Shown here piece after piece: positions 1 through 19,989 of a DNA stretch of 19,989 bases. The DNA lies in the NCBI GenBank assembly GCA_005191425.1, contig SUPR01000068.1, positions 1 through 19,989 of the forward strand. The letters run 5' to 3'. The notes under the pieces were generated by a model. That model was not told where the DNA came from, did no database searches, and saw nothing but the letters and a program-made list of their open reading frames with translations. The DNA is from Candidatus Helarchaeota ASGARD archaeon Hel_GB_B. GTDB taxonomy: Archaea; Asgardarchaeota; Lokiarchaeia; Helarchaeales; HEL-GB-B. The position numbers and the translations under genes are program-made. Positions within the stretch are counted from its first letter, which is position 1. Every line of letters starts with the position of its first letter.

Positions 1-2
1 AG

Positions 3-3000
3 TTCAGTATTTCTTGCCTGGACAATTAAATTAAGACTTAATCCAGACCAATTTTGATAGTATGGTTCACCAGTATATTTTACATAGAATTGTACCAAAT
101 GTCCTGTTGCACTTAACGACCCAAAAACTGTCGTGTTGATAGACAAAATATAATACCCAGGACTAGCCCCTACATAGACATTCCAGTATGAAGGATCTAT
201 ATTAGTACAGTTAATATACACACCAATTTTATCAGTAATTGTCCCTACATCACTTATTGGACTTGAGTAATAAGTATCCCAATATTTTATAGTTATATTC
301 GCTAATTCACCATAAGAAGTAGCAGTTGGTGGGGTCAATATAACTTGTGTATCAATTGGCCTGACCCTCATTATTACATTCATTGACCTGTCTGTATAAT
401 TTGCACTAGATGCATCAACTCGTAATGTGAAATAACCAGAATTTGGAGGAGCATATAATGATGTATTTACAGTTACATTGTATACTCCATTACCGTAATG
501 GAAATAGCTCCAATAAGAACTATTCCAATAAGTTCCAAAGTCTATACAGTACAAAGAAATAGTAGTATCACTTATTACTGACCCATCTAATTTTGTATAA
601 GTAACATTAAATGTAGCATTAACGTTCCAGACCACTTCAATTGGATAGTCAACGCCCATAATAGAAGTTTGGGGTTGAATTCTAAAAGTAATATTCAATT
701 CTTTTGATTGAACTAAGGAGCCAGCAGAGATATTTAAAGTAAGATAATATTTTCCGCCAATAACAAGTCCTAATGCAGTTGATGCATTAATTAAAAATTG
801 ATATCGCCCATCATCGCCGCTATATGCTCCAATTGCCCAGCTTGAAGTGGATTGGTTCCAGCCATAAACAAATAATATATTGGGGTGAGATGCATTTAAC
901 CAATTCCACCTTAATATTACATTACCGGTACTATTTACAATTCCTTCACCACTTTCTGCATCAATATAATTTATTGTAATATTTGTAAGTCCATCAATAA
1001 TTTGAGATGCAGGTGCAAATGGTGATGTAAATTGAGTATAACCACGTCTAATAGTAAATGTAATATTTGAAATAGTGCGGGAATCATAATTTGTTTTATT
1101 AATTTTAACACTTACTTTATAAGTCCCAAATTCATGGAGATTATTTGGCCCCATAAATATCCTCAATTCATACCAGCCGTTCCCTTGATAATTTACAGTA
1201 TAATTTGATGAGTAATAGAATGAACTGGTAATATTTACATCATTGATATCATAAATTGCTGTTACATTTAATTCTGCCCCAGAGATTGGACTACCACCTT
1301 CATCAAGATTGGTATATCTAAAATCAATTCCAAAAGAACCGGGGACATATTTTACACTCCCAGGGGGAATATATTCAAGTAATGATGTAATGTTTCTAAT
1401 ATTAAACGGAACAATAATTGATTTATTATAATATAATGAGTCGGAAATCCAAGAAACATTAATTTGGGCATAATAACCACCAGTAAGTCCCAAGGAAGAG
1501 GTATCAAGTGTAATATTATACCATCCATTACCCATTTGATTTTTCATGCTAAAAATCCAATATATCAGCCCAGAAACTTCATCAGTCAGTCCAACATCTC
1601 TAAATACTTGGAATGATATTGATACATTTCCAGCATATGTAGTAAGCCATGGAATCTGAGGATTAGTATCATTATTTATTCCCACAGAGGCACCAGAGGT
1701 ATTATCTTGATCAGTATATCTGAATTTGAGAGTAAGATTATATAAATAGGGGACAATATCAGGAGTTAAGTAGATTAAATTAGTTTCACGTGTTGCAATA
1801 ATAATATCAATCAAAGTTGAAGAATTATAATAACCATAAGCAGAATATATGGTAACATTCAATTGATGGCGACCTACAGGCCATTTCGATATGTCGCGAG
1901 TATCTATATCCAGTAAATATCCATTACCATCTTGGCTATAAGTTAATTTGACTCCTTGAGTTTCATTTATTGTAATATCGTCGGCATAGATAACGGATGG
2001 AGATAAGATTTGATTGTTATCTAAATCTTTTAAGTAGACATTCAAAGTGGCATTTTTACCCCATTTTATTATTTGTGGGACATCATAAATGACTTGAGTA
2101 TATCTGGGACGTATTTGCACTTCTACATAATAACTTTTAGTAATATAATGAGGCTTAGAAACAGTAATATTGATATAATAAGTCCTAATGCTTGTCCAAG
2201 AAGTATTTATTTCAATCTGGTAATAATAGCCATAAGAGCTTACTAATGGGTTTGATATGCTATAATAATCATTCCCATCATTTGACCAATTTACTTCAAC
2301 ATTGCCTGTTAAATCAATGGTATGGTCCAAATCACGATATGTAATACTTATAGTTTTATTATTACCGCGTGGATGATTAGAAATTATGGATGGATCTACA
2401 ATCAATTCTGTTTTAATTGGAGTAATAATAACTTCAAAATCCATATATCGTGTAGTCCAATTATTTTTTGAGGCTTTAATGGAGAGATAATAATGTTTTT
2501 CACTTAAATCACTTATATTTCCATGGAAAGTAATTTTATATGTATTATTGGAAAATGGACCAGCTAGAGACCAATTTAAACTAGAAGCATGACCACCTTC
2601 TAAGACAGAAATAGAAACTTGAGGACCAGACAAATTTAAATAGGGGCTATTAACAGTATCTTGGTACAAAATTTCAAGTGTAAAACTGTCATTCCAAGGA
2701 ATTGAAACATAAGCAAAGGAATATGTGGGCCTAATTAATTGAGTTGAGCGATTCAATATATATAAAGTAAGATAAATTTCTCTTGACTGGTATCCAGGTG
2801 CACTTACATTAATTCTTAAGTTATATGTACCTGGAATAATTTCATTATTAGCATTAATATCTAATTTATAAAAACCGCCCCCAATACTGTTTAAATCTAA
2901 AATGGTCGATATATCGGGCCACCCAGTTAAATTTACTTTTGCGTTATCAACTCCAATTTCACTCGTAATATTGAAAAAGTATACTTTAACTTCGAATGAT

Positions 3001-3803
3001 TCATTCCAATAAATTTGAGCAGAATAAAGATCGGTAATATTATTATAAGTTAACCAACCCGATCCGCTTGGAGGATGATCTATAGAAGTCCTTACTAAAT
3101 CCAGGTCAGAATCAGAATATACTATTTGAATTCTTACATTAAAAGTTTGAGTTTCAAATTTATACTGATATGGACTTGACTCGACCACATTCATAGTGAT
3201 CCTATACTCGGCATGGTCATGAATTTCAGCAGTATTTATTTCATAATACCAAGTAATCCCGTCAGGTTTAAGTGAAAAATAATCAATTGTCCCATTCAAA
3301 TAGTCAATTTTCACCTCAACATTAGTCCATGGAGATGTCCCATTTTTAATATTAGCTTGTTCAAATTCGTCATAAAATTGAACTGTAATATTATAATCAT
3401 TTATTTCTAATGTTTCAGCATAATAGGTTGTCAGGTTCCATTTTTGTTGAGGAGTAATTACATCTGCAGAGACATCTACAGTCTGATTAATAAAATATGG
3501 CCTTATTATTGAGTCAAAATATTTCTTGAATAAATAACAAGTAACATTTTGTGGTCCGGCTTTTAAGGCAGAGGTGGGTAAGTTAATAGTATAATTTCCT
3601 TTATTCACATTCCTTCCTTCTGTATAACTTGTATAATTGACAAGGACATATGAAGTTGAATTATATTCGATATAAAAATGACCATTAGAAACAGCATTAG
3701 ATAATTGGTCAGACCATCTTGCCTTAAATGGTAAAAAGCTTGGTTGTAAATAGCTATTTCCATAATCAAAAGATTTATCAATATAAATAAATACATTAGT
3801 TTT
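3..3803 (-). repeat. Protein-level tandem repeat array (11 complete units plus the start of a 12th) inside the giant ORF
   Basis: Units share the pattern T-x-hydrophobic ... (W/Y)-x-x-x-x-x-hydrophobic-x-hydrophobic-x-Y-x-D ... (GNG)-x-Y-x-hydrophobic-x-hydrophobic-x-T ... G-x-Y ... hydrophobic-x-hydrophobic-x-(I/V)-x-x-(R/I). Examples: STQLIRP..PWNDSFTLEILYQD, YTQVIYD..KWGKNATLNVYLKD, QMGNGWYNITLDTS, YQGNGWYELRI, HYGNGVYNVTVNTS. The units are diverged at DNA level. Confidence 0.85.
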
Positions 3804-6137: not shown

Positions 6138-6142
6138 AAAAT

Positions 6143-6150
6143 TCACTCTT
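6143..6150 (-). promoter_or_regulatory. Shine-Dalgarno-like site (AAGAGTGA) of the giant ORF
   Basis: Lies 5 nt upstream of the ATG at 6137. The identical octamer precedes the ZIP gene. It resembles the GGAGGTGA complement of the archaeal 16S 3' end. Confidence 0.6.
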
Positions 6151-6659
6151 TTTAATTTATTTTCTTATAATTGAAAACAACGACCGATAATTTCAACATT
6201 TATATGAGGAATACCTATGAATATAAATAAGAATTTAAATTGGATTTAAATATATATATTTATTGATGTTGAAATTTTAATTCATAAATATGAGTTTAAA
6301 GTTTAATATTGTTTCTTTTTCATATATTTATTTTTTTATTTACTTATAGATGACATATCTAAATATGCATAAAAGTATATTAGTCGGGAAAAAATTTAGT
6401 TATGTAGCCATTTTTTTATTATGAATTTACTTTAGCAGAATGAATAGGTTAACAGATAGAAAAATTCAATATGAAATTTAAATATAAAAATATCCCATTC
6501 ATAAAAAATGCAATCATTATTTACTGATTTACTTTAATATCATTATCATTAAAATAAATTCATGTCTGAATAAAAAATAGCATACCCGCATAATTAACAT
6601 ATTATTGATAATTTCTCTATATATTAAAAATGATGTTACATAGAGAAAAATCCATTAAA

Positions 6660-7988
6660 TCATAAAAATTCACTGGGTACCAATAAAGGATATGCCCACA
6701 TTGTTATAAATAAAATTATAATTCCAAGTAATAGAAGAATTGAAAAAATAGTTAATTTGATAAAGTATCTTGGCTTATATTTACTCTCAATGACTTGAAT
6801 TACGTCATTATTTACAATCTTTATATTAATATTATTTTTTTTAGTTAAGTATTTGAATATAGCATTTAATTTATTTTTATTTTTATTTCTTTCATCATAA
6901 ATAATCTTGTATAAAATTACTATAAACAAGGGAGAAAAATAAATGAGAGATAACATTGAATATGCAAGATTAATAAAGCATGAACTACTTGAAATAAAAA
7001 TAGAAATAAAAGCTTCACTAAATTTAAACATAACCATAGCATAAATAGTCATAACATACAAATTTAAGCTCCCAATAATACTTCTTATAGTAGGATATAG
7101 GAACTTTTTTTTGCCTGTTATGTCTAAATTAATGCTTCTTTTTATAAAAATATACGAAAAACTCAATGCAATTAAAATGGTTAATAATACAGGGTGCCCT
7201 ATACCAGTTGCATAACTCAATTTGGGGTCTAACAAAAATGAAAAAAATGCCCTGAAAAAGTGATTCCATAAAATATCATCATAAGGTAGTTCCCATGGAA
7301 AAAAGAAATAATCGGTTATAACCACAACTTGGATAAGGATTGCTACTCCGACCACGGATAATTTAATAGTCCCGGATAAGTTTGCTCTCGAAAAAGTATA
7401 AAGAATAATACAACCAATAAAACATACAAAAACATTAAACCCAAAATATTGTACCCAATGTCTTAAATTAATATCAAAACTTTGAAGTTCAAAAATAGTC
7501 ACTCTAATGACAACAGAAATAAAAAATACAAAAATTAAAATAAACCAGCCAAGATATTTAACTATAATCTTTTTATATCCTTTAAATTTATATTCGTAAG
7601 GAAATTTTTCAATTATATCAAACATTCTTTTAAATATATTCTTTTTGGGCTCTTTTTCTATCAATTTTTTCTTGGATAGACTGTCAAATTCAGATTTTTT
7701 AATTAGACCCATTTCTTTTGTAAATAAAAAACGCTCGATAGAAATCATTAGAAGAATATAAAAAACAGTAGCAAAAATAAATAGGAAGATAGTAATTGAG
7801 CTAAATGGGTCAATTAGAAAATTGAACATAAAAAATATTCCAAGAATCATTAATATTATAAAAATTATAAGATTTAAAAATGATAAAATTAAATTTTTCC
7901 TTGCTATTTTTACCTCATTTTCAAGCCTTCTTTTATTATTGTTTGATACCCTAAATTTTTTAGAAGAATCCGGCAAAAAGTATCGCAC
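6660..7988 (-). CDS. Polytopic membrane protein of unknown function (about 9-11 hydrophobic segments)
   Basis: 442-aa ORF with a GTG start. Many 18-25-aa I/L/F/V stretches are separated by K-rich loops. No family motif recognised. Confidence 0.85.
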   Translation of the reverse strand: MRYFLPDSSKKFRVSNNNKRRLENEVKIARKNLILSFLNLIIFIILMILGIFFMFNFLIDPFSSITIFLFIFATVFYILLMISIERFLFTKEMGLIKKSEFDSLSKKKLIEKEPKKNIFKRMFDIIEKFPYEYKFKGYKKIIVKYLGWFILIFVFFISVVIRVTIFELQSFDINLRHWVQYFGFNVFVCFIGCIILYTFSRANLSGTIKLSVVGVAILIQVVVITDYFFFPWELPYDDILWNHFFRAFFSFLLDPKLSYATGIGHPVLLTILIALSFSYIFIKRSINLDITGKKKFLYPTIRSIIGSLNLYVMTIYAMVMFKFSEAFISIFISSSSCFINLAYSMLSLIYFSPLFIVILYKIIYDERNKNKNKLNAIFKYLTKKNNINIKIVNNDVIQVIESKYKPRYFIKLTIFSILLLLGIIILFITMWAYPLLVPSEFL

Positions 7989-8047
7989 CTATACTTAAAT
8001 TCGAAATTAAATTTACATATATCTTAATTCTTAAAAAAATATTAGGT

Positions 8048-9610
8048 TTAAATGATTTTTCCTTTTCTATGTTTTAATTTTGTGTTTTTTGACTTTTTTT
8101 TATGATAAATTGCTTTTCTATAATAATTAATTGAAATCGTAAGGTTAATAATTAAAATAATTAGTCCAATAATCATAAAAATGATAATATAAATAATTAG
8201 TTGGTCTGAGATTTGTGGGAAACTGTTTGGGTCTAGAGGATTTGTCCCGATTGAGACTTCCAGTCCGTCAGAGTATCCATCACCATCAGTATCACTATTA
8301 TTTACATTTGTTTTATAAATATATTCCAAATAATTAGTTAGCCCATCATTGTCGATGTCCTGAAGAGCGTCTAACTTATTAGTAGGGGCAAGTCCATTTA
8401 AAACTTCCCAACCATCAGGCATTCTATCAGAATCAGTATCAGAGTTGTTCGGTAATGTATTATATATATATATTTCATCCCAATCATTTAGCCCATCAAA
8501 ATCAGTATCAAGTTTTAATGGATCCGAATGATAAATATGAATTTCATCTCCGTCAGATAGGTTATCGTTATCGGTGTCATTATTGCAAGGATTTGTTTGG
8601 TAAAAGATTTCCTCTCCATCTAATAAATTATCATTATCTGTGTCCGGGTCGGAAGGATCAGTAAAATATATTTCAATTTCTTCATAATCAGAAAGATTAT
8701 CATGGTCACTATCTAAATCATTTATTTTATTATTATGATAGATATTATACTCACTTGCCTCTTCATAAATTCCTCTATAGTTATCAATGATCCAATTATT
8801 ACTAATTGTATTATTATAGGCTAAATTTAAATGAACCCCATATTCGGTGTTATTATTGATAGTACTATTCAAAATTTGATTATAAAAAGAGAATAATATA
8901 ATATTTATACCAGATTTATTGTTTAAATTTATAGTGCTGTTAAAAATAACTGAGTAATTGGATTGGACAATTTCTATACCATAATAATCATTCAATTTAA
9001 TAGTATTATTAAAAAAATTATTTTTAATAGAAGATTCGACTTTTATTCCGCTTCTAAAATTATTAGAAATGAAATTATTTGAAAAATTGTTATTATTTGA
9101 ATTAGAAATTATCTTAATCCCATAATATTTATTTGAAAAAAAATTGTTTGCATAGATTTCTGAATGTGTTAATTGAAATCCATATAATCCGCTATTGCTA
9201 AATAGAACAGTATTATTATAAATTATTGCATTTGTAACATTTGAGAGAGACAAGCCATAAGTCCCATTATATAAGGTACAATTTCTAAGAATAAAATATT
9301 TATTGGTATTTCTAATTCGAATACAGAATCCATTATTACCGTTAATAGTTTTGTTTTCAATAACAAATGGTGAAATTTTAGTCCCATTTCCATAATCTGC
9401 TACCATTTCAAGCTGGGAATTGTTATCTACATCAATAAATGATTTTTTAAAAATAATAAATTTTTTATCAAAACTACTTTTAATAATTCCACTTTTTCTG
9501 ACCAATGAAAAATTAACATAAAAAATGTAAATTGATGATAATAAACATAAAAAAATGAAAAAGACCCTTAAATTCTTTATTTTCAATAGTTTAAGATTCA
9601 TTTTTTTCAT
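8048..9610 (-). CDS. Membrane-anchored secreted protein: right-handed parallel beta-helix (NosD/PbH1-like) + 7 TSP3-like Ca-binding repeats + C-terminal TM helix and basic tail
   Basis: N-terminal hydrophobic segment (VFFIFLCLLSSIYIFYVNF) is followed by GNGTKISPFVIEN, then Asn-ladder repeats (GI.I.S.NN.I.NN.I..N). DxDxDxLxDxxE repeats come next, then LIIYIIIFMIIGLIILIINLTISI and KKKSKNTKLKHRKGK. ATG 9610 is preferred over the track's TTG 9649, which overlaps cooC. Confidence 0.85.
   Translation of the reverse strand: MKKMNLKLLKIKNLRVFFIFLCLLSSIYIFYVNFSLVRKSGIIKSSFDKKFIIFKKSFIDVDNNSQLEMVADYGNGTKISPFVIENKTINGNNGFCIRIRNTNKYFILRNCTLYNGTYGLSLSNVTNAIIYNNTVLFSNSGLYGFQLTHSEIYANNFFSNKYYGIKIISNSNNNNFSNNFISNNFRSGIKVESSIKNNFFNNTIKLNDYYGIEIVQSNYSVIFNSTINLNNKSGINIILFSFYNQILNSTINNNTEYGVHLNLAYNNTISNNWIIDNYRGIYEEASEYNIYHNNKINDLDSDHDNLSDYEEIEIYFTDPSDPDTDNDNLLDGEEIFYQTNPCNNDTDNDNLSDGDEIHIYHSDPLKLDTDFDGLNDWDEIYIYNTLPNNSDTDSDRMPDGWEVLNGLAPTNKLDALQDIDNDGLTNYLEYIYKTNVNNSDTDGDGYSDGLEVSIGTNPLDPNSFPQISDQLIIYIIIFMIIGLIILIINLTISINYYRKAIYHKKKSKNTKLKHRKGKII
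8222..8713 (-). repeat. Seven coding DxDxD(G/N)-type calcium-binding repeats (bacterial TSP3-like)
   Basis: DSDHDNLSDYEE, DTDNDNLLDGEE, DTDNDNLSDGDE, DTDFDGLNDWDE, DTDSDRMPDGWE, DIDNDGLTNYLE, DTDGDGYSDGLE; most are followed by (T/S)(D/N)P. Confidence 0.85.
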
Positions 9611-9632
9611 ATTAATTAACTTTTTATAATAT

Positions 9633-10427
9633 TTAAACGCGTTTTTCAATATTCATAATAATTTGTTCATATAAATATTTAATTACTTCAATACCTTTGG
9701 AATTTTCGTCATTATCTATAGGAGCAATTGATTTTAAATCTGCTTCTTTTATTTTTTGGTCTAAAGGAATATTAGATAGAACTTCAATTCCAAGTTCTTT
9801 AGCTTTATTTTTTATAAAATCCAGTTCAAAATCGGATGAGATTTTATTACCTACTAAAAAGATTTTTTTAATGCCGAGTTCAGAGGCTAAATCTCTTATG
9901 GTTTTTGCAAGGACAATAGACCGATTTCCAGGTTCTACAACTATAATCATAGCGTCAACTGCTTTGGCGGTACCTCTTCCTAGGTGCTCAATGCCAGCGA
10001 CCATGTCTAGAATAACAACGTCCTTAGTTTCCAAGATGAGGTGGTATATTAATGCCCGAATTAATGCGTTATCGGGGCACATACAACCACTTGCTGGTGT
10101 TTGGACAGTACCCATTACTAATAATCTGACTCCATCAGGGCCTATTACTTGGAATTTATCGGGTAAGTCATCGACCTTGGGGTTTAGTACAAATACACCA
10201 CCTTGAGTCCCAGCGCGTTCTTCAATTATTTTCTTTTGCTCAGAAATTGGCTTGATTTTCTTTAAATCCTCGTTAGAAATTCCTATAGCTGTTGATAGGT
10301 TCATACTTGGATCCGCATCTATTGCAATAACCCTATAACCATTTCTTGCAAATAGCCTTGAAAGAGTCCCTGCTATTGTGGTCTTTCCAACACCACCTTT
10401 TCCAACAATCGCAATTTTATAGCCCAT
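9633..10427 (-). CDS. cooC: CooC/AcsF-family nickel-insertion ATPase (CO dehydrogenase/acetyl-CoA synthase maturation factor; MinD/SIMIBI class)
   Basis: Deviant Walker A GKGGVGKTT, IDADPSMNL, Ni-binding CxC motif in GCMCP, DMVAGIEHLGRGTAKAVD and VGNK. A GTGAT SD-like site lies upstream. Confidence 0.93.
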   Translation of the reverse strand: MGYKIAIVGKGGVGKTTIAGTLSRLFARNGYRVIAIDADPSMNLSTAIGISNEDLKKIKPISEQKKIIEERAGTQGGVFVLNPKVDDLPDKFQVIGPDGVRLLVMGTVQTPASGCMCPDNALIRALIYHLILETKDVVILDMVAGIEHLGRGTAKAVDAMIIVVEPGNRSIVLAKTIRDLASELGIKKIFLVGNKISSDFELDFIKNKAKELGIEVLSNIPLDQKIKEADLKSIAPIDNDENSKGIEVIKYLYEQIIMNIEKRV

Positions 10428-11202
10428 AAACTATCACATTAAAAATTTTAATTTTAGAAATTTAATTAAATAAGCAATTTTTGATTTGGGTTTTTTTATC
10501 ATTTTGTCAATCTATCAATATAAGAAATTTAAAACTTTTTTTAAAAATTTGAATATTAAAACTAATATTGATTTTAAAATGGGTAGATACAATACTACTT
10601 TTTGTTTTTTTTGATTATTCTAGATTTTTAATGATTAATCTATTAAAATAGGGGAGATAATTCATTTCTAAATAAGATTAATCAAAAAGATGAGAAATTA
10701 AATTTATTTGTATTAGGGTCTTATTAAAATTATAAATTTAATTAATTTTTAATTGGACTAAAATGAAAATTGATAGCGCGTATTTTAATTACAGATTGAA
10801 AATTAAAAGTTTTATACCATTTTTGTGAAATGTTTAGAATTGAATTTAGATGAATGTAAAAATTTTATTAAATTATTAATTTTTAAATATATAGACATAT
10901 ATTTATTTAGTAAATGTCGTTCTAAAATTCATTATTTTTATTTGATAATTTATTAAATTTAATATATTCGAATTTATCCTTTTAAATCTTTATAAAAGAG
11001 AATGAAAAAAAGTAAATTTTAGATGTGATAAATAATTTTTAAATAGAAGAAGTAAATAGTTATAAAAAGAATTAAAGTAAAAATAAAGAGATTCAATCAT
11101 AAATAATTATTTTAGATATAAAACAAATTTAAAATTAGAAGACTTTTAAAGCTCTAAAAATTTTACTAGATTCCACAATTTTTTATATTAGAGGGTCAAA
11201 AA
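10428..11202. promoter_or_regulatory. 775-bp extremely AT-rich divergent intergenic region (expected to hold promoters for cooC and for the GIFT-domain gene)
   Basis: Flanking genes point away from each other. No ORF of 60 aa or more in the track and none convincing by eye. Individual TATA boxes cannot be singled out in this composition. Confidence 0.55.
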
Positions 11203-12546
11203 ATGGAAAAAAGTTTTAAGGCAAGCATTGGTTTTGATAATACACAAAATGAGCGAGGAAAATTAGAGGAGAACTATACTAAATTCAAATCTATAATTAT
11301 AGATGAAGGTCATGAAATCAATTCAAAATTTGAATTTCCAATTTCACTTGGTCAATTGTCGAAGTATGACATAGTATTTTTTGCATGCCCAGATAGGTCG
11401 AAATTTCGGGAATTTGAAATAGAACAAATTATTAAATATGTAAAAAATGGTGGTAATGTAGTTTTATTAAGTAATGCTGGTGGAGATAAAGGGTTAGGTA
11501 CAAACCTAAATGAAATTGGTAAAGAATTTGGGATTACATGCAATAATGACCAGATTTGTGATGATGAACAAAATTATGGAATAAGGACACTTCCAATATC
11601 TCAGAATTTTAATTTACACCCAATAACGACTGAGATCGAACTTTTATTATTACCAGGTGCTTGTAGCTTAAATGTATCTAAAGATGCAACGGTAATAGTA
11701 TCTTCAGGAGAACATGCCGAACCACCAAATGCACCAGTAATCGCTGTTGCGGAAAAAGGACTTGGTAAATTTGTATTTTTTGGGACTTATGAATTGTTTA
11801 GAGATAATATTAGGGGGGGTATTCAAGTTATTCAGCACCGAATTTTATTAAAAAATCTATTAAATTGGCTATTTGAAGATATGGAAAAGAAAAGACTAAT
11901 ACTTAATATTCAAACTTTGGCTAACGCCGTTGTTCTGAAACTTAAAAAGAAAGAGAAAAAGGAAAAAGGTATTGAACCAATTAAAATTGTTTCTACCAAA
12001 CCAGTTATAAGGACTCCTGATGGTAAAATTTCCCCAGAGTCCATGCTTGACCAGATTATTATATCTTTAAAACAACTTCAGGAAATTAGTGGAAATTTAA
12101 ATATTATTGATAGAAACATAACAGAATTTGCTCGCGAGATTAAACTGTTAAGAAATGATATTACTTCAATTCCAAGCGAAATGGACAATCTTACAAAAGA
12201 AATTTCAAATATATCACTATTATTAAAAGATTTACAAGAAGAAATAAAGGAAATCAAAATTGCTAAAAGTCTTGAAAAAGCTATAGAAAATTTTCAAGAT
12301 TTTAAATTAAATTTCGAGTCTCAAATAGACATAATTTTAAATAAAAACATTAACCCAATTAAATTGGAAATTTCTGAAATAAGTGAGTCCGTTAATTTGA
12401 AAGACAAAGAAATAGAAAAAATCAAAGAAGATTTAGTTTATATTAAAGAAAATTTAGTCTTAAAAAAAGATGTTGAAGAAATAAAAATAGAATTAATTGA
12501 TAGTATCAAAAGTTTTTTTGAAAATTTAAAAAATCAGGGCCAATAG
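11203..12546 (+). CDS. IFT52/GldG-like (GIFT, class-I GATase-like fold) domain protein with C-terminal coiled coil; no signal peptide
   Basis: Residues about 5-223 read IGFDNTQNE...LSKYDIVFFACPDRSKFREFEIEQIIKYVKNGGNVVLLSNAGG...TNLNEIGKEFGITCNNDQI...HPIT...GKFVFFG...LLKNLLNWL. This matches the remembered IFT52 N-terminal pattern (P..KF...E.E.(I/L).KY...GG.V.......GG......TN.N.....(E/Y)GI..NND). A K/P-rich linker and heptad-rich C-terminal ~170 aa follow. Confidence 0.75.
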   Translation: MEKSFKASIGFDNTQNERGKLEENYTKFKSIIIDEGHEINSKFEFPISLGQLSKYDIVFFACPDRSKFREFEIEQIIKYVKNGGNVVLLSNAGGDKGLGTNLNEIGKEFGITCNNDQICDDEQNYGIRTLPISQNFNLHPITTEIELLLLPGACSLNVSKDATVIVSSGEHAEPPNAPVIAVAEKGLGKFVFFGTYELFRDNIRGGIQVIQHRILLKNLLNWLFEDMEKKRLILNIQTLANAVVLKLKKKEKKEKGIEPIKIVSTKPVIRTPDGKISPESMLDQIIISLKQLQEISGNLNIIDRNITEFAREIKLLRNDITSIPSEMDNLTKEISNISLLLKDLQEEIKEIKIAKSLEKAIENFQDFKLNFESQIDIILNKNINPIKLEISEISESVNLKDKEIEKIKEDLVYIKENLVLKKDVEEIKIELIDSIKSFFENLKNQGQ

Positions 12547-12640
12547 TTAAAATTCTTTTATTTTTTTACAATTTATAATCTTTCAATTACTCTTTTTTAA
12601 AAGAAATACTTAAATTCTCCAAAATTTAATTAATATTATA

Positions 12641-12651
12641 ATTTTTATATA
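12641..12651 (+). promoter_or_regulatory. Candidate TATA box (TTTTTATATA) for the coiled-coil-profilin gene
   Basis: About 35-45 nt upstream of ATG 12686. A GGAGA SD-like site lies just before the ATG, and T-runs follow the upstream stop codon. Weak because the background is AT-rich. Confidence 0.35.
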
Positions 12652-12685
12652 CCTTTCACTAATAATTATTTCTGGAGAGATAGTA

Positions 12686-15199
12686 ATGTCTATGAGTAGC
12701 CTTGAAAAAGAGATTGAAAAATTAAAAGCAGATATTGATTTCAGAAATAAAAGAATTGAAAAACTAGAATTAGAAGTTGCAAAAAATAAGACGGATGCCA
12801 GATTAAAAGACGAAAAAATTGAAAAGCAACAAATAGAAATAAAAAATAAATTGGAAGAAATTGAGAGAAAAGACGCAGAAATTAAAACATTAAAAGAAAA
12901 ACTGGAATCACTAGCTACTGACCAACTTGAACAAGAACTAAATTCATTAAAAACACTCAGTCAAAATCAAAAAAAGGAAATTGATTCTTTAAAAATTGAA
13001 AATGAGAAATTAATATCTGAACTTGATAAAGCAAATAAAAAAATTGATGAATTAAATTCAACTTTAGAATCTCAAAAAGAAAATATCGCGTCATTAGAAT
13101 CTCAATTTTCTGATGCTCAATCTAAAATTAAAGAAAAAGAGAAAGAATTAATCGCAACGAATATTAAAAATTCTAAGCTGGAAGATTCGATTAAAAATCT
13201 AAAAAATTTATTAGACGCCAGTAATGATGAAAAAAACAAGTTATATGAAAATTTAGAGAATATTAATAAAAAAGTTTCAGAACTTGAAAAACAAATACAG
13301 GAAAAAGATGAAAAAATAGAAAAAATTAAAAATGAATTAGAACTTACAACTCAAATTTCCGATAATAATAAACAAATGGTCGATGATTATAAAAAACAAA
13401 TTATTGAATTAAATAATAAACTCACCAAATATATTAACGATTCGGAGGGAAAAAGCCTTAAAATTGACAATTTACAAAAAGAATTAGACAAATTACATGC
13501 AGGAGTCGACCTTTATGAGTCCAAAATTAAAGAATTGAAAGACAAAATTAATGAAAAAGAAGAAGAGATTCAAAAATTAAAATCAAGTAGTAGTAGCCCA
13601 TTAGAAGATAATTTAAAAGTGGAAGAGTTAAACAGACGTATTAAAATTTTAGAACTTGAACTTAAGGATACCAAGAAGGAGTTAGAGGAAGAGAAAAGTA
13701 AAAAAAGAGTGAAAGAATCTGAAAAAGCAGTTATATCTCCTAAAGATATTTCACTTGAGTTTGATATTGAGAAAATTTTGATCGGTAATCTCACAGATTC
13801 AGATAAAGAACAAATAACAGAACAATTTAAAAAGCAACAAAATTTGATTAAAGAATTTATGACGGTAAATAATAAACAAAAACTACAAATTGAAAAATTA
13901 GAAAATAAAATTTCCAAAAGAGACGATGAAATAGAAGATATTAAGAAAAAAAATAAAGAATTAGAAAAAGAAATTAAAAAATTATCTAAAGAATTAAAGA
14001 AAAAATCCCATGTAATTAAAGAATTGAAAAGTGAAGTTGATCTAGAAGAAGCAATTGACCAGATTGATAAAATTGGAGAATATGAAAGCAGATTTGAAGA
14101 AATAAATAAATTAAAAGGTTTATTAGAAAAAGCAAATATTACAATAGAGGGCCAAAAAAATATTATTAAAGACCTAGAAAATACAGTCGCTACATTAAAA
14201 AAAGATACAAATGTACAAGCAGCACAAAAACTCAGAGAATCATATGAACAATATATAATGAACCTCCAAAAAGAAGCGTATGATAATAAATATCAATTAG
14301 AAAATGCATTAAAAAGAATTGAAGATTTGGAATTTGAATTAGAAAAATATAATAAATTATTTAGTCAATACGAATCTCAAATTGAAAAAATTGGTAAGAT
14401 TAGTGAGGGCGTCTCTTCAGATATTCCCTTGGATGAATATACTTCAATTCCAAGTAGCCAGCCTACGGATGAAATAAATTATAATGAATATGAACAAGGA
14501 AAACCAGCTTTTGTCCCTAGTGAAACAAATTTAAAACCCTCAGAATTATTTGGGACTCGACCAGCTCCAAATAAAGTAATCGAGCGAGCGAATGAATCCA
14601 CAAATGAATTATTGGGTAGTAAATTAATAGGTGAATCGGACGACCTAAACCAAAATAGAGGATTATTAACTCCTGCTAATATATCACAAGATAGTAATTT
14701 ACTTACACCAGATGACCTAAAAAGTGATAATAAAGTAAAGGATGGAGAATTATTAGGAAGTTCAAGCAGTGGTGGATTATTAACGGGAGAAACAGAACTA
14801 AAATTACTACCAGAAGAGGGTAAATTTAGCTTATTAAATAAAATAATTAATCAATTTATTAAATATTGTAACAATGTTGACGATTCGGCATTATGTATGT
14901 TTGATGGACTTGTCTTATCTCAAACTTTTGATTGGGACATTTCTGCAGATATAAAAAGAGTAATAAATGAATGGAAAGAGGAATCTACCTCAATTTTTTT
15001 GAAAGGGACTAAATATGCAACTTTAAAAGTGGGAGATGATGTATTAGTAGCCACCAGTACACAGGGAAAAGGACATCTACTATGTATCTCAATTAATGAA
15101 GATTTGTTTATAATATTTGTTTTAGATAAAACTGCAGACCCACTGACTATTTTTGATGATTTTGAACCCTATAATGAGCAATTACGAAGTTTATTATAA
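12686..15199 (+). CDS. 837-aa protein: about 570-aa coiled coil + acidic low-complexity linker + C-terminal Asgard-type profilin domain
   Basis: Residues 5-570 are E/K/L-rich heptads with no Walker motifs. Residues 573-713 form an S/D/E/P/G-rich linker. Residues 714-837 carry DGLVLSQTFDWDISADI, TSIFLKGTKY, VATSTQGKGHLL and EPYNEQLRSLL, matching remembered Loki profilin motifs (DG.I..QT.NW.IS.D, TS..IQG.KY, TN..GKGH, Y...L..L(I/L)-COOH). Confidence 0.85.
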   Translation: MSMSSLEKEIEKLKADIDFRNKRIEKLELEVAKNKTDARLKDEKIEKQQIEIKNKLEEIERKDAEIKTLKEKLESLATDQLEQELNSLKTLSQNQKKEIDSLKIENEKLISELDKANKKIDELNSTLESQKENIASLESQFSDAQSKIKEKEKELIATNIKNSKLEDSIKNLKNLLDASNDEKNKLYENLENINKKVSELEKQIQEKDEKIEKIKNELELTTQISDNNKQMVDDYKKQIIELNNKLTKYINDSEGKSLKIDNLQKELDKLHAGVDLYESKIKELKDKINEKEEEIQKLKSSSSSPLEDNLKVEELNRRIKILELELKDTKKELEEEKSKKRVKESEKAVISPKDISLEFDIEKILIGNLTDSDKEQITEQFKKQQNLIKEFMTVNNKQKLQIEKLENKISKRDDEIEDIKKKNKELEKEIKKLSKELKKKSHVIKELKSEVDLEEAIDQIDKIGEYESRFEEINKLKGLLEKANITIEGQKNIIKDLENTVATLKKDTNVQAAQKLRESYEQYIMNLQKEAYDNKYQLENALKRIEDLEFELEKYNKLFSQYESQIEKIGKISEGVSSDIPLDEYTSIPSSQPTDEINYNEYEQGKPAFVPSETNLKPSELFGTRPAPNKVIERANESTNELLGSKLIGESDDLNQNRGLLTPANISQDSNLLTPDDLKSDNKVKDGELLGSSSSGGLLTGETELKLLPEEGKFSLLNKIINQFIKYCNNVDDSALCMFDGLVLSQTFDWDISADIKRVINEWKEESTSIFLKGTKYATLKVGDDVLVATSTQGKGHLLCISINEDLFIIFVLDKTADPLTIFDDFEPYNEQLRSLL

Positions 15200-15244
15200 T
15201 AAAAATCTTTTTATTATTAAGCTTTTTTTCATAGGTAATTCTAT

Positions 15245-17485
15245 ATGATACCACTAACTTCTCAAAAATTTTCAGAAGTTTTTGGTGTAAATTCATCTAT
15301 TTATTATGAATATAAAAATGAAATTTCAGATTTATTTAGAACTAACAATAATTATATAGAAATAATGAGTGATAAAGAACAATGGACCAAAAAATTTAGT
15401 TTATTATATAAAAAATCAGAATTGAATGAAGATCTATTCATCAAACATTCATATATTTCCTTATTGATTAAAATTATTATTGCAAAAAAGGTTCTTTTAT
15501 TTAAGAAATGGACAGACCTTGAAAATTTTAAAAATACTCTCGATGAAAAAAAAATAGACATTTTTAAAGATGAATTATTTAAGTGGAATATACAAATCAA
15601 TAAAATAAATAAAATGATTTTTAATGAAATCGATAAATACAATTTTAAATCAATGGACCTCTTTAATTTATTATATCAAGAAATGTTTACTATTAAAACT
15701 AGACGTAATCTTGGAGAATATTATACACCGCCTGAATTGGCAAAATTAATGGTAGATGACAGCTATAAACTTGGGGATTATGTATTGGACCCAAATTGTG
15801 GGAGCGGTACGATTCTTATTGAAATTATATTAAAAATTATAAGATCAGATATTCCTGACACTGACAAAATTAAATATTTAAATCGGATCTATGGGTTTGA
15901 TATAAATCCAATAGCAATTTTAATTGTTAAAGCAAATTTATTGTTAATTTATTATTTAAACAATTTAAAAGATACCTCAATTAATATTTTTCTTTTAAAT
16001 CCATTGTTTGAAAAAGAGTACAAAGGAGCGCAATTTCCTAAATTTGATTTAATTATAGGAAATCCACCATGGATTGTCCTCAATAGTATTCATTCTTATG
16101 AATATAAAGAAAAAATAAGAATGAAAGCATTAGAACTTGGGATAATAAGGGGTGGTAAATACTCAACATCAATAGAAATCAGCTCACTTATTTTTGAAGA
16201 TGTTTCACAATATTTTTTGAAGAATGGAGGAATTATATTCTTTATTATGACAAATGGGGTTATGAATGGCGATCAACATTCAAAATTCCGCACTTTTAAA
16301 AATTTCAAAGAGATAACCATTTGGAAATTTACGGAGGATATATTTAGAATTAATAGCATCTGTTTGAAAGCAAAAAAAGGTTTTAGACCAATTCTTGAGC
16401 GATTAAAAATAAATGTAATTGAATTATTTTGTATTAAAAAAGATTCTAAGTGGGAATTCAAGTTCAAAAGACCAGAAATTTATGTTCCATACAATTATAA
16501 TACAATTAATGAAAATTCAAAAATTATAAGAAGATTTATCCCATTAAAAATATTAGAATTATTATTACCCCAAAAAAAATCAGAATATTCCAGTAAATTC
16601 TATCAAGGCGCGTCATTAATACCCAGAAATTTAATTTTTATTAATATAGATCTTGAAATTAATGAAAAACTTGTTAAAATATCACCCTATATGGATTTTC
16701 AAGCCAAATATCCCTGGAATAAAAAACCTTTTGACAACGCAATTATAGAAAAAAAGTACATTTTTAATGTGGCAAAAAGTACTGACCTCGTCCCATTTAA
16801 GTTGTTAACTACCCATTACGTTGTTTTACCTATAAATAAAAAAGATTTCAAGTATGAACCAAAATTATTGAATAAATATGCACAAATCCATTTTAATTTC
16901 CTGAATAATTATTATAAAGAAAATATAAAAGAGGGAACTAAAATTGGGAAATTGTGGAATGAAATTAATCATTTTAATAAATTAATTAATCCAAATCAAA
17001 AAAGAAAAATTAAAATAATTTTTAATGGAATCGGTAGCATTGTCAAATCAGCTGTTTTAACAAATTATGAATTAATTGATACGAGTCTTTATTATTATTC
17101 GGCAAATAATTTGGACGAAGCTTATTATCTTATGGCAGTATTAAATTCGCCTTCGATAACTTATTCTATCCAATATTTTGGGAGTATTGGAAAAAGCGGA
17201 ACCTTGCGAAATATTCATAAACACCCATTAAACATTCCAATTCCTCTATACAACCCAAATAACGAATTATGTACCAAAATATCAAATCTTGGAAAAAAAT
17301 TAGAACAATTGGTCCAAAGTTTGATCAATGAATGGATAAAGGAAGGTAATAATAAAACATTTATCAAATCACAAATAAAATTAAGACCAAGGGCAATTCA
17401 ACTATATATATTAGAAAATAAATTATTCCAAAAACAATTAAAATACTTAGATAATTTAACAAAAAGTTTAATTTTTGAAGGATAA
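15245..17485 (+). CDS. N6-adenine DNA methyltransferase (gamma class, Eco57I/TaqI-like) with fused C-terminal target-recognition region; no nuclease domain recognised
   Basis: GEYYTP (motif X), VLDPNCGSG (SAM-binding motif I), GFDINP, FDLIIGNPPW (catalytic motif IV). About 350 aa of C-terminal region ending in a YYY..LNS..IP.P pattern typical of TRD-bearing MTases. Confidence 0.88.
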   Translation: MIPLTSQKFSEVFGVNSSIYYEYKNEISDLFRTNNNYIEIMSDKEQWTKKFSLLYKKSELNEDLFIKHSYISLLIKIIIAKKVLLFKKWTDLENFKNTLDEKKIDIFKDELFKWNIQINKINKMIFNEIDKYNFKSMDLFNLLYQEMFTIKTRRNLGEYYTPPELAKLMVDDSYKLGDYVLDPNCGSGTILIEIILKIIRSDIPDTDKIKYLNRIYGFDINPIAILIVKANLLLIYYLNNLKDTSINIFLLNPLFEKEYKGAQFPKFDLIIGNPPWIVLNSIHSYEYKEKIRMKALELGIIRGGKYSTSIEISSLIFEDVSQYFLKNGGIIFFIMTNGVMNGDQHSKFRTFKNFKEITIWKFTEDIFRINSICLKAKKGFRPILERLKINVIELFCIKKDSKWEFKFKRPEIYVPYNYNTINENSKIIRRFIPLKILELLLPQKKSEYSSKFYQGASLIPRNLIFINIDLEINEKLVKISPYMDFQAKYPWNKKPFDNAIIEKKYIFNVAKSTDLVPFKLLTTHYVVLPINKKDFKYEPKLLNKYAQIHFNFLNNYYKENIKEGTKIGKLWNEINHFNKLINPNQKRKIKIIFNGIGSIVKSAVLTNYELIDTSLYYYSANNLDEAYYLMAVLNSPSITYSIQYFGSIGKSGTLRNIHKHPLNIPIPLYNPNNELCTKISNLGKKLEQLVQSLINEWIKEGNNKTFIKSQIKLRPRAIQLYILENKLFQKQLKYLDNLTKSLIFEG

Positions 17486-17582
17486 TAAAATACTCTATTA
17501 AGAGGTAAAAAAAATAGAGAGTAGAAGAAATCCAATTAACTTATATTGTATATGATTTGAATTTTAACATTCAGACTAAGCC

Positions 17583-18005
17583 CTAATAATGAAATATGTT
17601 ATGTCCACACGGACAAACCCTTGGATGCTCCAATTTTGTACATATTTTATCAATTATTTTCTCTGATATATAAATGTCTATTTTAGAAGCTTCTTTGCAT
17701 GCCTCTTCACAGGTTAATCCCAATTCATTTGAAAAAAAATATTCTAAAATGCGATGTTTTCGCATTAAGATTTGGCCTTGTTTAATCCCATGAGGAGTTA
17801 ACTTGATACCTTTGTATTTTTTATATTCAACAAGTCCCAACATTGATAGACTTTGAAAATGCTCCGTGACAGTAGAAGGGTGTACATTGAATTTTTCAGC
17901 AAAAAATTTTGTTGAAAACCACTTATTAGGATTTTGATCATAATTTCTAATAATCGGTTTTAAATATTTGCTAATAGTCTGTTCTTTCATATTAATATTT
18001 GGCAA
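17583..18005 (-). CDS. DtxR/MntR-family metal-dependent transcriptional regulator (no FeoA/SH3 domain)
   Basis: wHTH segment AEKFNVHPSTVTEHFQSLSMLGLVEYKKYKGIKLT..G, then RKHRILEYFF..ELG and C-terminal HP..CPCGH. Starts 21 nt after the ZIP stop codon. TTG start with GGA upstream; alternative ATG at 17990. Confidence 0.9.
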   Translation of the reverse strand: MPNINMKEQTISKYLKPIIRNYDQNPNKWFSTKFFAEKFNVHPSTVTEHFQSLSMLGLVEYKKYKGIKLTPHGIKQGQILMRKHRILEYFFSNELGLTCEEACKEASKIDIYISEKIIDKICTKLEHPRVCPCGHNIFHY

Positions 18006-18026
18006 TTTTAATTCCTTTAATTAGCT

Positions 18027-18782
18027 TTAAACAAATATTACTTTAAAAAACCACATTAAAAATATTCCGATTATAAATAGGATTGAAATAAATGTAGTCT
18101 TTTTTCCACTATTTTCCTTCTTTAATTCGGGAATGAGGTCAGCTGCTGCAATATATATAAATCCACCCGCAGAAAATGCTAATAAGTATGGAGAAATGGA
18201 TAGGAGCGAATATAATAAATAATATCCGAAAATTCCACCACCAATAGCTGTTAACGCTGTTAGAAAATTGAAAAATAAAGCTCGTTTTTTGGAAAAGCCG
18301 CCATAAATGAGTACCCCAAAATCGCCAATCTCTTGAGGGATCTCATGAGCTATAACTAAAATTGTAGCAACAAAACCTAATTGAAAGGATGATATAAAGG
18401 AAACAGCAATTACCAGCCCATCTGTAAAATTGTGAATACCATCACCAATAAGATTCAACCATTTGAATGAATGTTGCTCGCAAATATGATCTTTTTCTAC
18501 ATTATGGCATTGATGATAATCCAATAATTTTTCAAATATAAAAAAACAAATAAAACCGATGATAAGGATTATGTATATGTTTAATGAATTTATTTTCTCC
18601 ACAGCTTCGGGTAATAGATGTAAAAATCCTCCGCCGATTAGTGCACCTGCAGCAAAACTAACTAAATAAAAAACAATTTTGTTTAACGTTTTGTCATTAA
18701 TGCTTAAAGTTATTACTCCGACTAATGAAATTAAACTAACAATAAAATTACTCAATACAATATACAATAAGGTAAAATCCAT
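18027..18782 (-). CDS. ZIP-family (ZupT-like) divalent metal transporter
   Basis: SFAAGALIGGGFLHLLPEA, His-containing loop HQCHNVEKDHICEQH, TM4 GDGIHNFTDG, TM5 AHEIPQEIGDFGVL, GGFIYIA..DLIPEL. Confidence 0.93.
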   Translation of the reverse strand: MDFTLLYIVLSNFIVSLISLVGVITLSINDKTLNKIVFYLVSFAAGALIGGGFLHLLPEAVEKINSLNIYIILIIGFICFFIFEKLLDYHQCHNVEKDHICEQHSFKWLNLIGDGIHNFTDGLVIAVSFISSFQLGFVATILVIAHEIPQEIGDFGVLIYGGFSKKRALFFNFLTALTAIGGGIFGYYLLYSLLSISPYLLAFSAGGFIYIAAADLIPELKKENSGKKTTFISILFIIGIFLMWFFKVIFV

Positions 18783-18788
18783 ATTTTT

Positions 18789-18796
18789 TCACTCTT
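18789..18796 (-). promoter_or_regulatory. Shine-Dalgarno-like site (AAGAGTGA) of the ZIP gene
   Basis: 6 nt upstream of ATG 18782. Same octamer as upstream of the giant ORF. Confidence 0.6.
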
Positions 18797-18959
18797 TGAA
18801 TTGTTTTTCAAGTAAACAAATATTTTATTCTTTATAATAATATCTTATTAATAAAATAGATATCTAAAATTTTCTTAAAATTAAAAAAACTTTTTTGAAA
18901 ATATGTTTCTAATTATTCGTACATATTTTTTATTGAATAATTAAATAAATCCAAAATAA

Positions 18960-18967
18960 TTTATAAA
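18960..18967 (-). promoter_or_regulatory. Candidate TATA box (TTTATAAA) of the ZIP-dtxR operon
   Basis: Canonical archaeal TATA sequence. On the minus strand it is directly preceded by purine-rich ACCAAAAA (BRE position). Implies a leader of about 150 nt. Confidence 0.5.
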
Positions 18968-18968
18968 T

Positions 18969-18985
18969 TTTTGGTCAGACCAAAA
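18969..18985. promoter_or_regulatory. Perfect 8-1-8 inverted repeat TTTTGGTC-A-GACCAAAA, candidate operator of the adjacent DtxR-family regulator
   Basis: Exact palindrome containing G/C bases in an otherwise AT-rich spacer. Overlaps the BRE position next to the TATA box. Length and AT-rich flanks fit DtxR-family boxes. Confidence 0.7.
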
Positions 18986-19078
18986 TTTCCAAAATAAGTA
19001 ATAATTTTTCCAATAAATTGATATTAGCAATTTGTCGGTGATATATAGTAATTTTTTAAGAATTAGTATATATAAAAT

Positions 19079-19688
19079 TTAATCTGATGATTTTTTAATG
19101 TTCATCAGCTCATTTACTTCTTCGGCAATACGCGAAATAACACCCTCTACCCTTAGGTATAATTGAAATGGACGTTGGGTCTGCTCTTACCTTAATGCCT
19201 GTTTTATGTGCAATAATACGCAGTTTTTTTATTTCGTCCAATGCTTTATCAAACATTTTTTCGAGATTTTTTATGGTTTCATTGGTTTCAGTCGTAAATT
19301 TATCTAAGCTAGAGTCTAATGATTCAGTTGCGTTTTTTAATGATTGTTCCATATTATTTGTTGCAGAAATTAGATTTGAAGTTGATTCCACCAACGCTTT
19401 TTCTATTGTAATTTAAGTTTTTTCTAATGATTGCGTAGTTTTCAAAAATGCTTTTGCTACTTCGTTTAAATTTTCAGTTGTAGTTTGTAATGAAGTAGAT
19501 ATTATTTGTGCTGTTTCTAAAAATGATTTAGAAACTTCAGTTAAATTATTGGAAGTAAGCTCCATCGATTTTGAAATACTATCGGCAGTCTCTTTTAATG
19601 AACTGTTTAATTCTAAAGATACATCATCAAATTTCTTGATTATTCTATTAATTTTATTGTTAACTTTTTCAATGATTGGTATTTTCAA
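19079..19688 (-). pseudogene. Disrupted gene for an about 202-aa amphipathic helical (7/11-residue repeat) protein; merges track ORFs 19413..19709 and 19110..19394
   Basis: The two track ORFs are in the same frame, separated by TAA at 19413-19415, and the repeat pattern continues across it. Removing one G from GGG at 19150-19152 gives IIPKVEGVISRIAEEVNELMNIKKSSD-stop (TAA 19079-19081). Probable start is TTG 19688 with an AGGTGG SD-like site upstream. Confidence 0.7.
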
Positions 19689-19989
19689 ATTTCTAAACCA
19701 CCTTTCCAATTAAGTGTTAAATGGTGCTAAAATATTTGAAATTATCTATTTTATTCAACCTTCTTTTAACACATTTTTGATGATATGTACCACAAACTAA
19801 TAAAGATTTATAAAATGTTAAGATATAACTTAAAAATACAAAAATATTTTGAATTTCAACATTTTTTTCCAGATTTTTTGATTTAGTATATATTTTAAAA
19901 GTATTTTTTTTCGAGATTTTTCAAATTCCACTTTTCGACAAAAATATATAAATGTTAATTCTATTTTTTCGGAAATATATTTTTTGATA

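Follow-up and report, generated by a model that had tools for sequence, protein, structure and literature searches.

A GIFT/coiled-coil gene and a coiled-coil–profilin gene form a conserved, lineage-specific pair in two families of Helarchaeales

Profilin is among the best-studied of the proteins common to Asgard archaea and eukaryotes, and so far it has been known in these archaea as a small free protein: the profilins described (Loki profilin-1 and -2, Odin and Thor; structures 5yed/5yee, 5zzb, 5zza and 7pbh) are stand-alone and have about 120–145 aa. In eukaryotes, formin FH1 domains and Ena/VASP recruit profilin-actin non-covalently by poly-proline tracts. IFT52, a soluble cytoplasmic protein in the core of the intraflagellar transport complex IFT-B1, carries a GIFT domain together with a proline-rich segment that binds IFT88/IFT70 and a C-terminal domain that binds IFT46. 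Here we describe two neighbouring genes that join domains of these kinds to long coiled coils. They lie in a 19,989-bp stretch of DNA (the window; contig SUPR01000068.1, positions 1 to 19,989) from the metagenome-assembled genome (3.5 Mb, 27% G+C) of the archaeon Candidatus Helarchaeota Hel_GB_B. Gene 1 encodes P0001, which has an N-terminal GIFT domain and a coiled-coil tail, and gene 2 encodes P0002, which has a coiled-coil stalk and a C-terminal profilin domain. The pair is real, apparently undescribed, linked, and specific to two families of Helarchaeales (Lokiarchaeia), and it brings together a profilin of new architecture and a paralogue, specific to this lineage, from an IFT52-like family of Asgard archaea.

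The C-terminal domain of P0002 is an Asgard-type profilin in both sequence and fold. In phmmer searches, the last 132–140 residues matched 7pbh (E = 3.9e-11), 5zza (4e-8), 5zzb (2.6e-7) and 5yed (1.4e-6). The AlphaFold2 model of this domain (predicted local distance difference test, pLDDT, 89.3) has the profilin fold, with terminal helices on a central antiparallel sheet, and Foldseek placed it with 5zza, 5zzb and 5yee, which are profilin/actin complexes of Odin and Loki (E = 3e-11 to 5e-10; template modelling score, TM, 0.74–0.87). P0002 gave only 18.6 bits against the Pfam family Profilin (PF00235; cut-off, 25); because a 241-aa profilin-domain protein of a related genome reaches only 25.6 bits, this profile barely catches Asgard profilins in general. 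The C-terminal 132 residues are homologous to the known Asgard profilins and have the same predicted fold. However, here the profilin ends an 837-aa protein, behind a coiled coil of 580 residues and a linker of 125 residues.

Collinear orthologues of gene 2 (785–853 aa) were found in both families, which are called f1 and f2 below; the profilin domain is their most conserved part, with an invariant QGKGHLLC, and the linker the least conserved. In P0002, heptad-periodic segments extend across residues 1–580, with a covered fraction of 0.62, versus 0.07 in shuffled sequences. The stalk also has conserved non-heptad patches, namely residues 1–35, GVDLY (273–277), SEVDLEEAI (449–457) and Y-E-x-Y-I-x-x-L-Q-x-E-x-Y-D (520–533). 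Its matches in Pfam and other family profiles were weak and confined to generic coiled-coil families. Six LL[G/T/P] motifs of the linker, spaced 9–18 residues apart, are located at 642, 660, 672, 689, 698 and 707 (residues 641–709, positions 14606–14812). In f2 the linker is much shorter and poorly conserved; of the motifs, only the last ones, next to the profilin domain, persist there, and the final LL is alone invariant. The LL[G/T/P] motifs may serve as short linear motifs for docking, or may form an element that packs back onto the profilin head.

Full-text searches of the literature yielded no description of a coiled-coil–profilin fusion, and no link of GIFT or IFT52 to Asgard or other archaea was found in the literature searched. 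Word-indexed protein searches for long profilin fusions yielded only a Helarchaeota homologue of 82% identity and several shorter proteins (255–412 aa); such searches are too insensitive for judging the distribution, because they missed f2 orthologues that are known from contigs.

Both proteins were searched in 41 related genomes, and the neighbourhoods were then compared. The f1 loci are those of the window genome (G000), of a second genome of the same genus (G001) and of a JGI Helarchaeota contig (L052). The f2-type loci are G002, G004, G006, L066 and L068, of which L066 and L068 were found through GIFT-family representatives and G004 lies on a contig that ends inside the stalk gene. In all eight loci with enough sequence context, a GIFT gene of a single clade (clade A) lies directly upstream of the coiled-coil–profilin gene and in the same orientation, even though BLAST identity between f1 and f2 is 43–45% for gene 1 and 27–28% for gene 2. 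Upstream of the pair are a MinD/ParA-like gene on the opposite strand (G000 and L052), an IS6 insertion-sequence transposase fragment (G001), or a deacetylase gene and a 189-aa gene (f2); downstream are a type IIG-like methylase gene (G000 and L052), a ZIP transporter gene (G001), or a gene of 317–320 aa (L066 and L068). Since the flanks differ on both sides, the pair has survived rearrangement on both sides, with adjacency and orientation kept across diverged genomes.

In a maximum-likelihood tree of 37 GIFT/coiled-coil proteins, the six profilin-adjacent genes form clade A (support, 100/99) on a long stem, and clade B contains the genes of family f3, the further paralogue that f1 and f2 possess, and every gene of f4 and f5. 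In the genomes compared, clade-B GIFT genes never adjoin a profilin gene; the profilins of clade-B genomes lie elsewhere, in open reading frames (ORFs) of about 125–460 aa, mostly below 250 aa. Likewise, the second long profilin paralogue (509–736 aa) and the second GIFT paralogue of f2 do not adjoin each other. A profile of 575 stalk residues recognized the stalk in f1 and f2 only, that is, in five of the seven genomes of the order and in five of the 400 genomes of the phylum. No stalk was found with it in f3, f4, f5 or 395 other Asgard genomes, where the residual matches (at most 47 bits) were to generic coiled coil, and among the neighbours compared of the GIFT genes of other families it matched no stalk homologue without profilin. 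Clade A and the stalk thus have the same distribution and are always adjacent, and both genes are novelties of one small lineage. An earlier note on this DNA, made by a model from the sequence alone, had asked whether the neighbourhood is conserved across metagenome-assembled Asgard genomes. In short, it is, though narrowly: the order of the pair is conserved in every one of the eight loci, in two families of Helarchaeales, but with five of 400 genomes it is not a general Asgard feature; the link was seen within this one order and, among the 150 best GIFT relatives, never as a fused gene.

The coordinates of the two genes, of their domains and of the signals between them are collected in Table 1.

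Table 1. Features of the gene pair, in window positions
Feature	Position	Strand	Basis or remark
Gene 1 (P0001)	11203..12546	+	ORF call; 447 aa
GIFT domain, residues 1–225, GATase1-like alpha/beta fold	11203..11877	+	AlphaFold2, Foldseek, phmmer
Tail, residues 273–444	12019..12534	+	Clade-A motif, predicted helices, heptads
T-rich tract (T4 then T7), TTCTTTTATTTTTTT, candidate archaeal oligo-T terminator	12553..12567	+	Starts 7 nt past gene 1 stop
Candidate B recognition element (BRE)/TATA promoter block AAAGAAATACTTAAATTCTCCAAAA	12599..12624	+	62–87 nt 5' of gene 2 ATG
GGAG ribosome-binding site	12674..12677	+	8 nt before gene 2 ATG
Gene 2 (P0002)	12686..15199	+	ORF call; 837 aa
Segmented coiled-coil stalk, residues 1–580	12686..14425	+	Heptad analysis
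Pro/Ser/Asp-rich disordered linker, residues 581–705	14426..14800	+	Composition, motif positions
Asgard-type profilin domain, residues 706–837	14801..15196	+	phmmer, AlphaFold2, Foldseek

The N-terminal domain of P0001 belongs to the GIFT superfamily. Residues 1–225 scored 68.3 bits against the Pfam family IFT52_GIFT (PF23355; cut-off, 27.2), and in phmmer the head matched structures of the IFT52 N-terminal domain (5fmr) at E = 6e-15. An AlphaFold2 model of P0001, built with 54 sequences, has a pLDDT above 95 across the GIFT domain, and its top solved structures in Foldseek were 5fms and 5fmr (E = 5e-19; TM, 0.80–0.92; root-mean-square deviation, 1.8–4.2 Å); OST48 and ThuA-like proteins ranked next (E = 1e-9 or weaker). 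The weaker Pfam matches were to PF09822, DUF2194 and OST48_N. In the model, residues 227–254 form a helix packed on the GIFT domain, which is followed by a linker and then by tail helices at 278–318, 327–417 and 421–444. The heptad segments of the tail (279–323, 325–381 and 386–420) have a periodicity far above that of shuffled sequence. The tail opens with the motif G-x-x-S-P-E-x-x-L-D-Q-I, which is invariant in the clade-A rows of the alignment and loosely echoed in clade B; clade-A orthologues of gene 1 are 39–72% identical in a six-sequence alignment. Separately, His139 (11617–11619) and Cys154-Ser155 (11662–11667) are nearly invariant in 54 Asgard GIFT/coiled-coil proteins, and the Cys-Ser position is Ala-Thr in IFT52.

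Neither P0001 nor P0002 has a hydrophobic N-terminus or a transmembrane-grade segment (maximal Kyte-Doolittle means over 19 residues, 1.22 and 1.43, respectively). The features on which the earlier note had built its idea of a two-gene module were thus confirmed: two co-oriented genes on the + strand, 139 bp apart by their ORF coordinates, without signal peptides by the hydropathy scan, with a GIFT domain at the N-terminus of one (Pfam, phmmer and AlphaFold2/Foldseek), a profilin at the C-terminus of the other (phmmer and AlphaFold2/Foldseek), and a long coiled coil in both, with a heptad periodicity far above that of shuffled sequence.

The same note had called the GIFT head eukaryote-like, which holds only in part. 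In its favour, IFT52 (5fmr, 5fms and 8bd7 chain B) is the best solved structural match, and it has in common with the head of P0001 a K-N-G-G ... G-T-N-x-N ... F-G ... N-N-D stretch; both proteins are also soluble and cytoplasmic. However, when 1.84 billion representative proteins were searched exhaustively, P0001 matched 61 clusters at E below 1e-30, and a long tail of weaker matches came after them. We take these 61 clusters to be the Asgard GIFT/coiled-coil family. A true IFT52 (P0145, 301 bits to PF23355) came only at about rank 145 (E = 5e-13), and at least two prokaryotic GIFT proteins, one with a Por secretion tail and one with DUF2341, outranked it (E = 1e-16 to 1e-21), with PF23355 scores comparable to that of P0001. 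The GIFT head is therefore not specifically eukaryotic, and IFT52 is its best match among solved structures only.

P0001 does not look like an IFT52 orthologue either, since after residue 225 it has a linker and coiled coil in place of the two partner-binding parts of IFT52 and since IFT52 is not its nearest relative outside its own family. The match to full-length IFT52 (8bd7_B) spans only about 250 columns, and a Pfam scan of P0001 found no IFT52-specific family besides GIFT. The prokaryotic GIFT proteins (GldG/ABC_transp_aux PF09822, DUF4350 and ThuA-like proteins) have the domain superfamily in common with gene 1, but they are mostly exported or membrane-associated, whereas the gene 1 product has a coiled-coil tail and no signal peptide or transmembrane segment. 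By its sequence, gene 1 is a diverged, clade-A paralogue in a soluble family of GIFT-head/coiled-coil-tail proteins that occurs widely among Asgard archaea.

In archaea, RNA polymerase ends transcription at oligo-T tracts. Between genes 1 and 2, a T7 tract begins 15 nt past the stop codon of gene 1, and a T-rich tract is present at the same position in both other genomes of the genus; a similar T7 tract lies 3' of gene 2 (15223–15229, 24 nt past the stop). Runs of at least six T occur in 7.6% of random 40-nt windows of this DNA. Further downstream in the spacer, the block AAAGAAATACTTAAATT-T-CAAAA (12599–12624) is near-invariant in the three f1 genomes, the surrounding spacer having diverged, and when the three genomes are aligned, TCTGGAGA, which directly precedes the start codon of gene 2, does not vary either. 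The sequence thus does contain the T-runs and the TATA-like box about which the earlier note had cautioned, and the 139-bp spacer is not the short gap without terminator or promoter signals that is typical of an operon. With a T7 tract in the spacer, besides the conserved block of BRE/TATA type and a GGAG site, gene 2 probably has its own promoter, with some read-through possible. Aligning the f2 spacers revealed no element of clear conservation. In L066, where the f2 cluster is co-directional, the two genes are separated by 172 bp, which exceeds every other gap of the cluster (61–82 bp).

A promoter motif common to both genes was considered and rejected. No conserved block precedes gene 1, and near-copies of the 12599–12624 block are scattered over the genome, so that this block looks like a generic promoter consensus; on these grounds, a case for co-regulation cannot be made. 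The stretch was contained in 17 sequencing runs, all of them DNA metagenomes from hydrothermal-vent or marine sediment.

Besides the pair, the window genome encodes an actin (G000:C118:27048–28157; 446 bits to PF00022), two stand-alone profilins and a second profilin fusion. Since the stand-alone profilins have been kept, gene 2 is an additional, specialised copy. The second fusion (G000:C118:20810–22357; L061:6829–8358) has N-terminal winged-helix (TrmB-type) DNA-binding-like repeats and a C-terminal profilin; its product measures 509–533 aa in f1, whereas the f2 orthologues (L058:7081–9291, L059:5774–7960 and L060:8104–10305) have about 730 aa. In the window genome, the main actin gene is about 4.7 kb away from it, and the distance to a stand-alone profilin gene (C118:11219–11698) is about 9 kb.

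The genes that flank the pair vary among the loci. The gene at 9633–10427 (–) encodes a MinD/ParA-type ATPase with a C-x-C motif (GCMCP) that scores below every NCBIfam cut-off. Orthologues of it (55–59% identity) lie one to three genes from the GIFT gene in seven of the eight loci, with an orientation that differs between f1 and f2; the neighbourhood might thus have this gene as a third member, or the gene may simply be a slow-moving neighbour. In G001, the sister species, an IS6 transposase fragment (L031:309–857; G001:C199) takes its place directly upstream of the GIFT gene. The interval between the divergent MinD/ParA-like and GIFT genes (10428–11202; 775 bp, very A+T-rich) contains no ORF exceeding 43 codons, and comparison with both other genomes of the genus showed no conserved block in it. 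On the other side, 15245–17485 (+) encodes an N6-adenine methylase of the Eco57I/type IIG kind, which G000 and the JGI contig have 3' of gene 2 and which is absent from G001, where the ZIP transporter gene follows directly, and from all f2 loci. In the JGI contig, two CHAT-domain protease genes are inserted downstream near the methylase gene; this spot is variable for insertions. The 317–320-aa gene of f2 (L066:9856–10818 and L068:10223–11176), which begins 77 bp past the stalk-profilin gene in L066, gave faint matches to Era/EngA-type GTPases and has only a distant homologue in G000, elsewhere in the genome (C19).

The domains, the adjacency and the common distribution suggest that the pair is a lineage-specific actin-related module. 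Our preferred reading, to which we give somewhat less than an even chance, is that genes 1 and 2 are functionally linked in the same actin-related process without forming a strict operon; two separate promoters would then serve one process. The adjacency raises the odds of a functional link without establishing one, and several results weigh against it. Genes of all f2 loci compared were located in G000, and of 41 adjacent pairs with homologues there, 11 still lay within 6 kb of each other, or about 5 of the 18 that remained after dropping the redundancy among three f2 genomes and one tandem duplicate; the baseline is thus about 25–30%, and effectively two lineages have been sampled. The 139-bp gap between the genes (107–373 bp in the relatives) is long for an operon, and an oligo-T tract and a conserved promoter-like block lie between them. 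A profilin domain is absent from all of the 150 best GIFT relatives, which thus offer no Rosetta-stone fusion, and the clade-B genes of f4 lie 3' of genes for a GPN-loop GTPase and a nucleotidyl-transferase. Finally, the length of gene 1 products varies from 370 to 558 aa among orthologues through the tail, which argues against a fixed, in-register heteromeric coiled coil along the whole tail.

Much of this would also be expected if the two genes were neighbours by descent only, both having come from the common ancestor of f1 and f2 without yet being separated, and acted independently, gene 2 as a tethered profilin and gene 1 like other Asgard GIFT/coiled-coil proteins. The baseline, the signals in the spacer, the unrelated neighbours of the f4 relatives and the lack of a GIFT-profilin fusion among the 150 best relatives all fit such an account, which we regard as a realistic possibility, although not the one that we favour. 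Against it, the pair has outlived an adjacent insertion-sequence fragment and inserted restriction-modification and protease genes, and the two genes, each a novelty of this one lineage, are distributed identically. The earlier note had cautioned that adjacency in one genome may be chance; about a quarter of pairs survive anyway, and this pair was kept in all eight loci despite changed flanks. At the other extreme, in the strong form of the idea of that note, the two proteins might form an obligate, co-transcribed coiled-coil complex that delivers actin as IFT-B delivers tubulin. The unbroken adjacency and co-orientation, the long coiled coils in both proteins, and the non-heptad stalk patches and clade-specific tail motif, which could be docking sites, are consistent with such a complex. 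Nevertheless, the spacer signals point to separate transcription, the gap of the pair is the largest in the L066 cluster, the tail is not conserved in length and there is neither IFT81/74 homology nor a CH domain, so that we consider an obligate complex improbable. More improbable by far is that, together with the type IIG-like methylase, the pair is part of a variable island of defence or mobile genes and has no cytoskeletal role. The methylase gene directly downstream, the CHAT protease genes inserted nearby in the JGI contig and the IS6 fragment upstream in G001 would suit such an island, but the pair is kept where the methylase is missing (G001 and all f2 loci), both proteins gave only weak PADLOC matches, to generic coiled-coil arms (JetC, LmuB and DruC), and the C-terminal domain of gene 2 is a clear profilin.

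If genes 1 and 2 do serve one actin-related process, a mechanism can be outlined from the predicted architecture. The stalk, of about 580 residues, is most likely a dimeric coiled coil, and each chain would present its profilin head on a flexible tether of about 125 residues. Provided that the head binds actin, the tethered profilin would hold itself and profilin-bound actin monomers at a high local concentration wherever the stalk is anchored, and one polypeptide would then do the work for which eukaryotes bring free profilin to poly-proline tracts. As an anchor or scaffold partner, the GIFT/coiled-coil protein would be the best candidate; its contact with P0002 might involve the non-heptad stalk patches and the clade-A G-x-x-S-P-E-x-x-L-D-Q-I motif of the P0001 tail. 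A stronger version, in which the two proteins form a heteromeric scaffold that anchors tethered profilin-actin at a defined site, such as the base or tip of a protrusion, seems to us unlikely on present evidence, although less so than the obligate complex. If true, it would be an independently arisen archaeal device for delivering actin monomers, like formin FH1/profilin or an IFT-B adaptor, and the widespread IFT52-like family of Asgard archaea would thereby gain a first assigned function. Complex prediction for P0002 residues 1–550 with full-length P0001, each with its own alignment, gave an interface score (ipSAE) of 0.00 twice; being made without controls, linker or profilin head, it counts neither way.

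A stable link to the profilin gene, as seen in gene order, offers a concrete, testable functional lead for the soluble Asgard IFT52-like GIFT/coiled-coil family. Because no more than two Helarchaeales families have the pair, its bearing is on how single lineages elaborated the Asgard cytoskeleton, not on the eukaryotic ancestor, and a profilin on a stalk would show that Asgard lineages have been experimenting independently with the regulation of actin.

One point speaks for the analogy to IFT-B drawn in the earlier note. Within that complex, the GIFT domain of IFT52 rests in a cradle formed by the IFT57/38 coiled coil (PMC9753473), so that the docking of a GIFT domain on a coiled coil has a precedent. 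The likeness to the IFT81/IFT74 module is that of a long coiled coil with a domain that binds a cytoskeletal monomer, beside a GIFT-domain scaffold. However, the cargo of IFT81/IFT74 is tubulin, whereas here, judging from the genes, it would be actin. An IFT81/IFT74-like adaptor has an N-terminal CH domain and a homologous coiled coil, and a Pfam scan of P0002 found no CH domain and no IFT81/74 homology, only weak generic coiled-coil matches. As P0001 also lacks the partner-binding parts of IFT52, the comparison with IFT-B is one of analogy only.

Formin FH1 domains and Ena/VASP offer the other comparison. In its predicted architecture, the stalk-profilin protein resembles them as a dimeric scaffold with flexible arms that would raise the local concentration of profilin-actin. 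This situation is different from theirs in that they recruit profilin, whereas here the profilin is part of the same chain, and no FH2-like domain accompanies it; a profilin fixed on a long coiled-coil stalk would thus be a new way of placing actin monomers.

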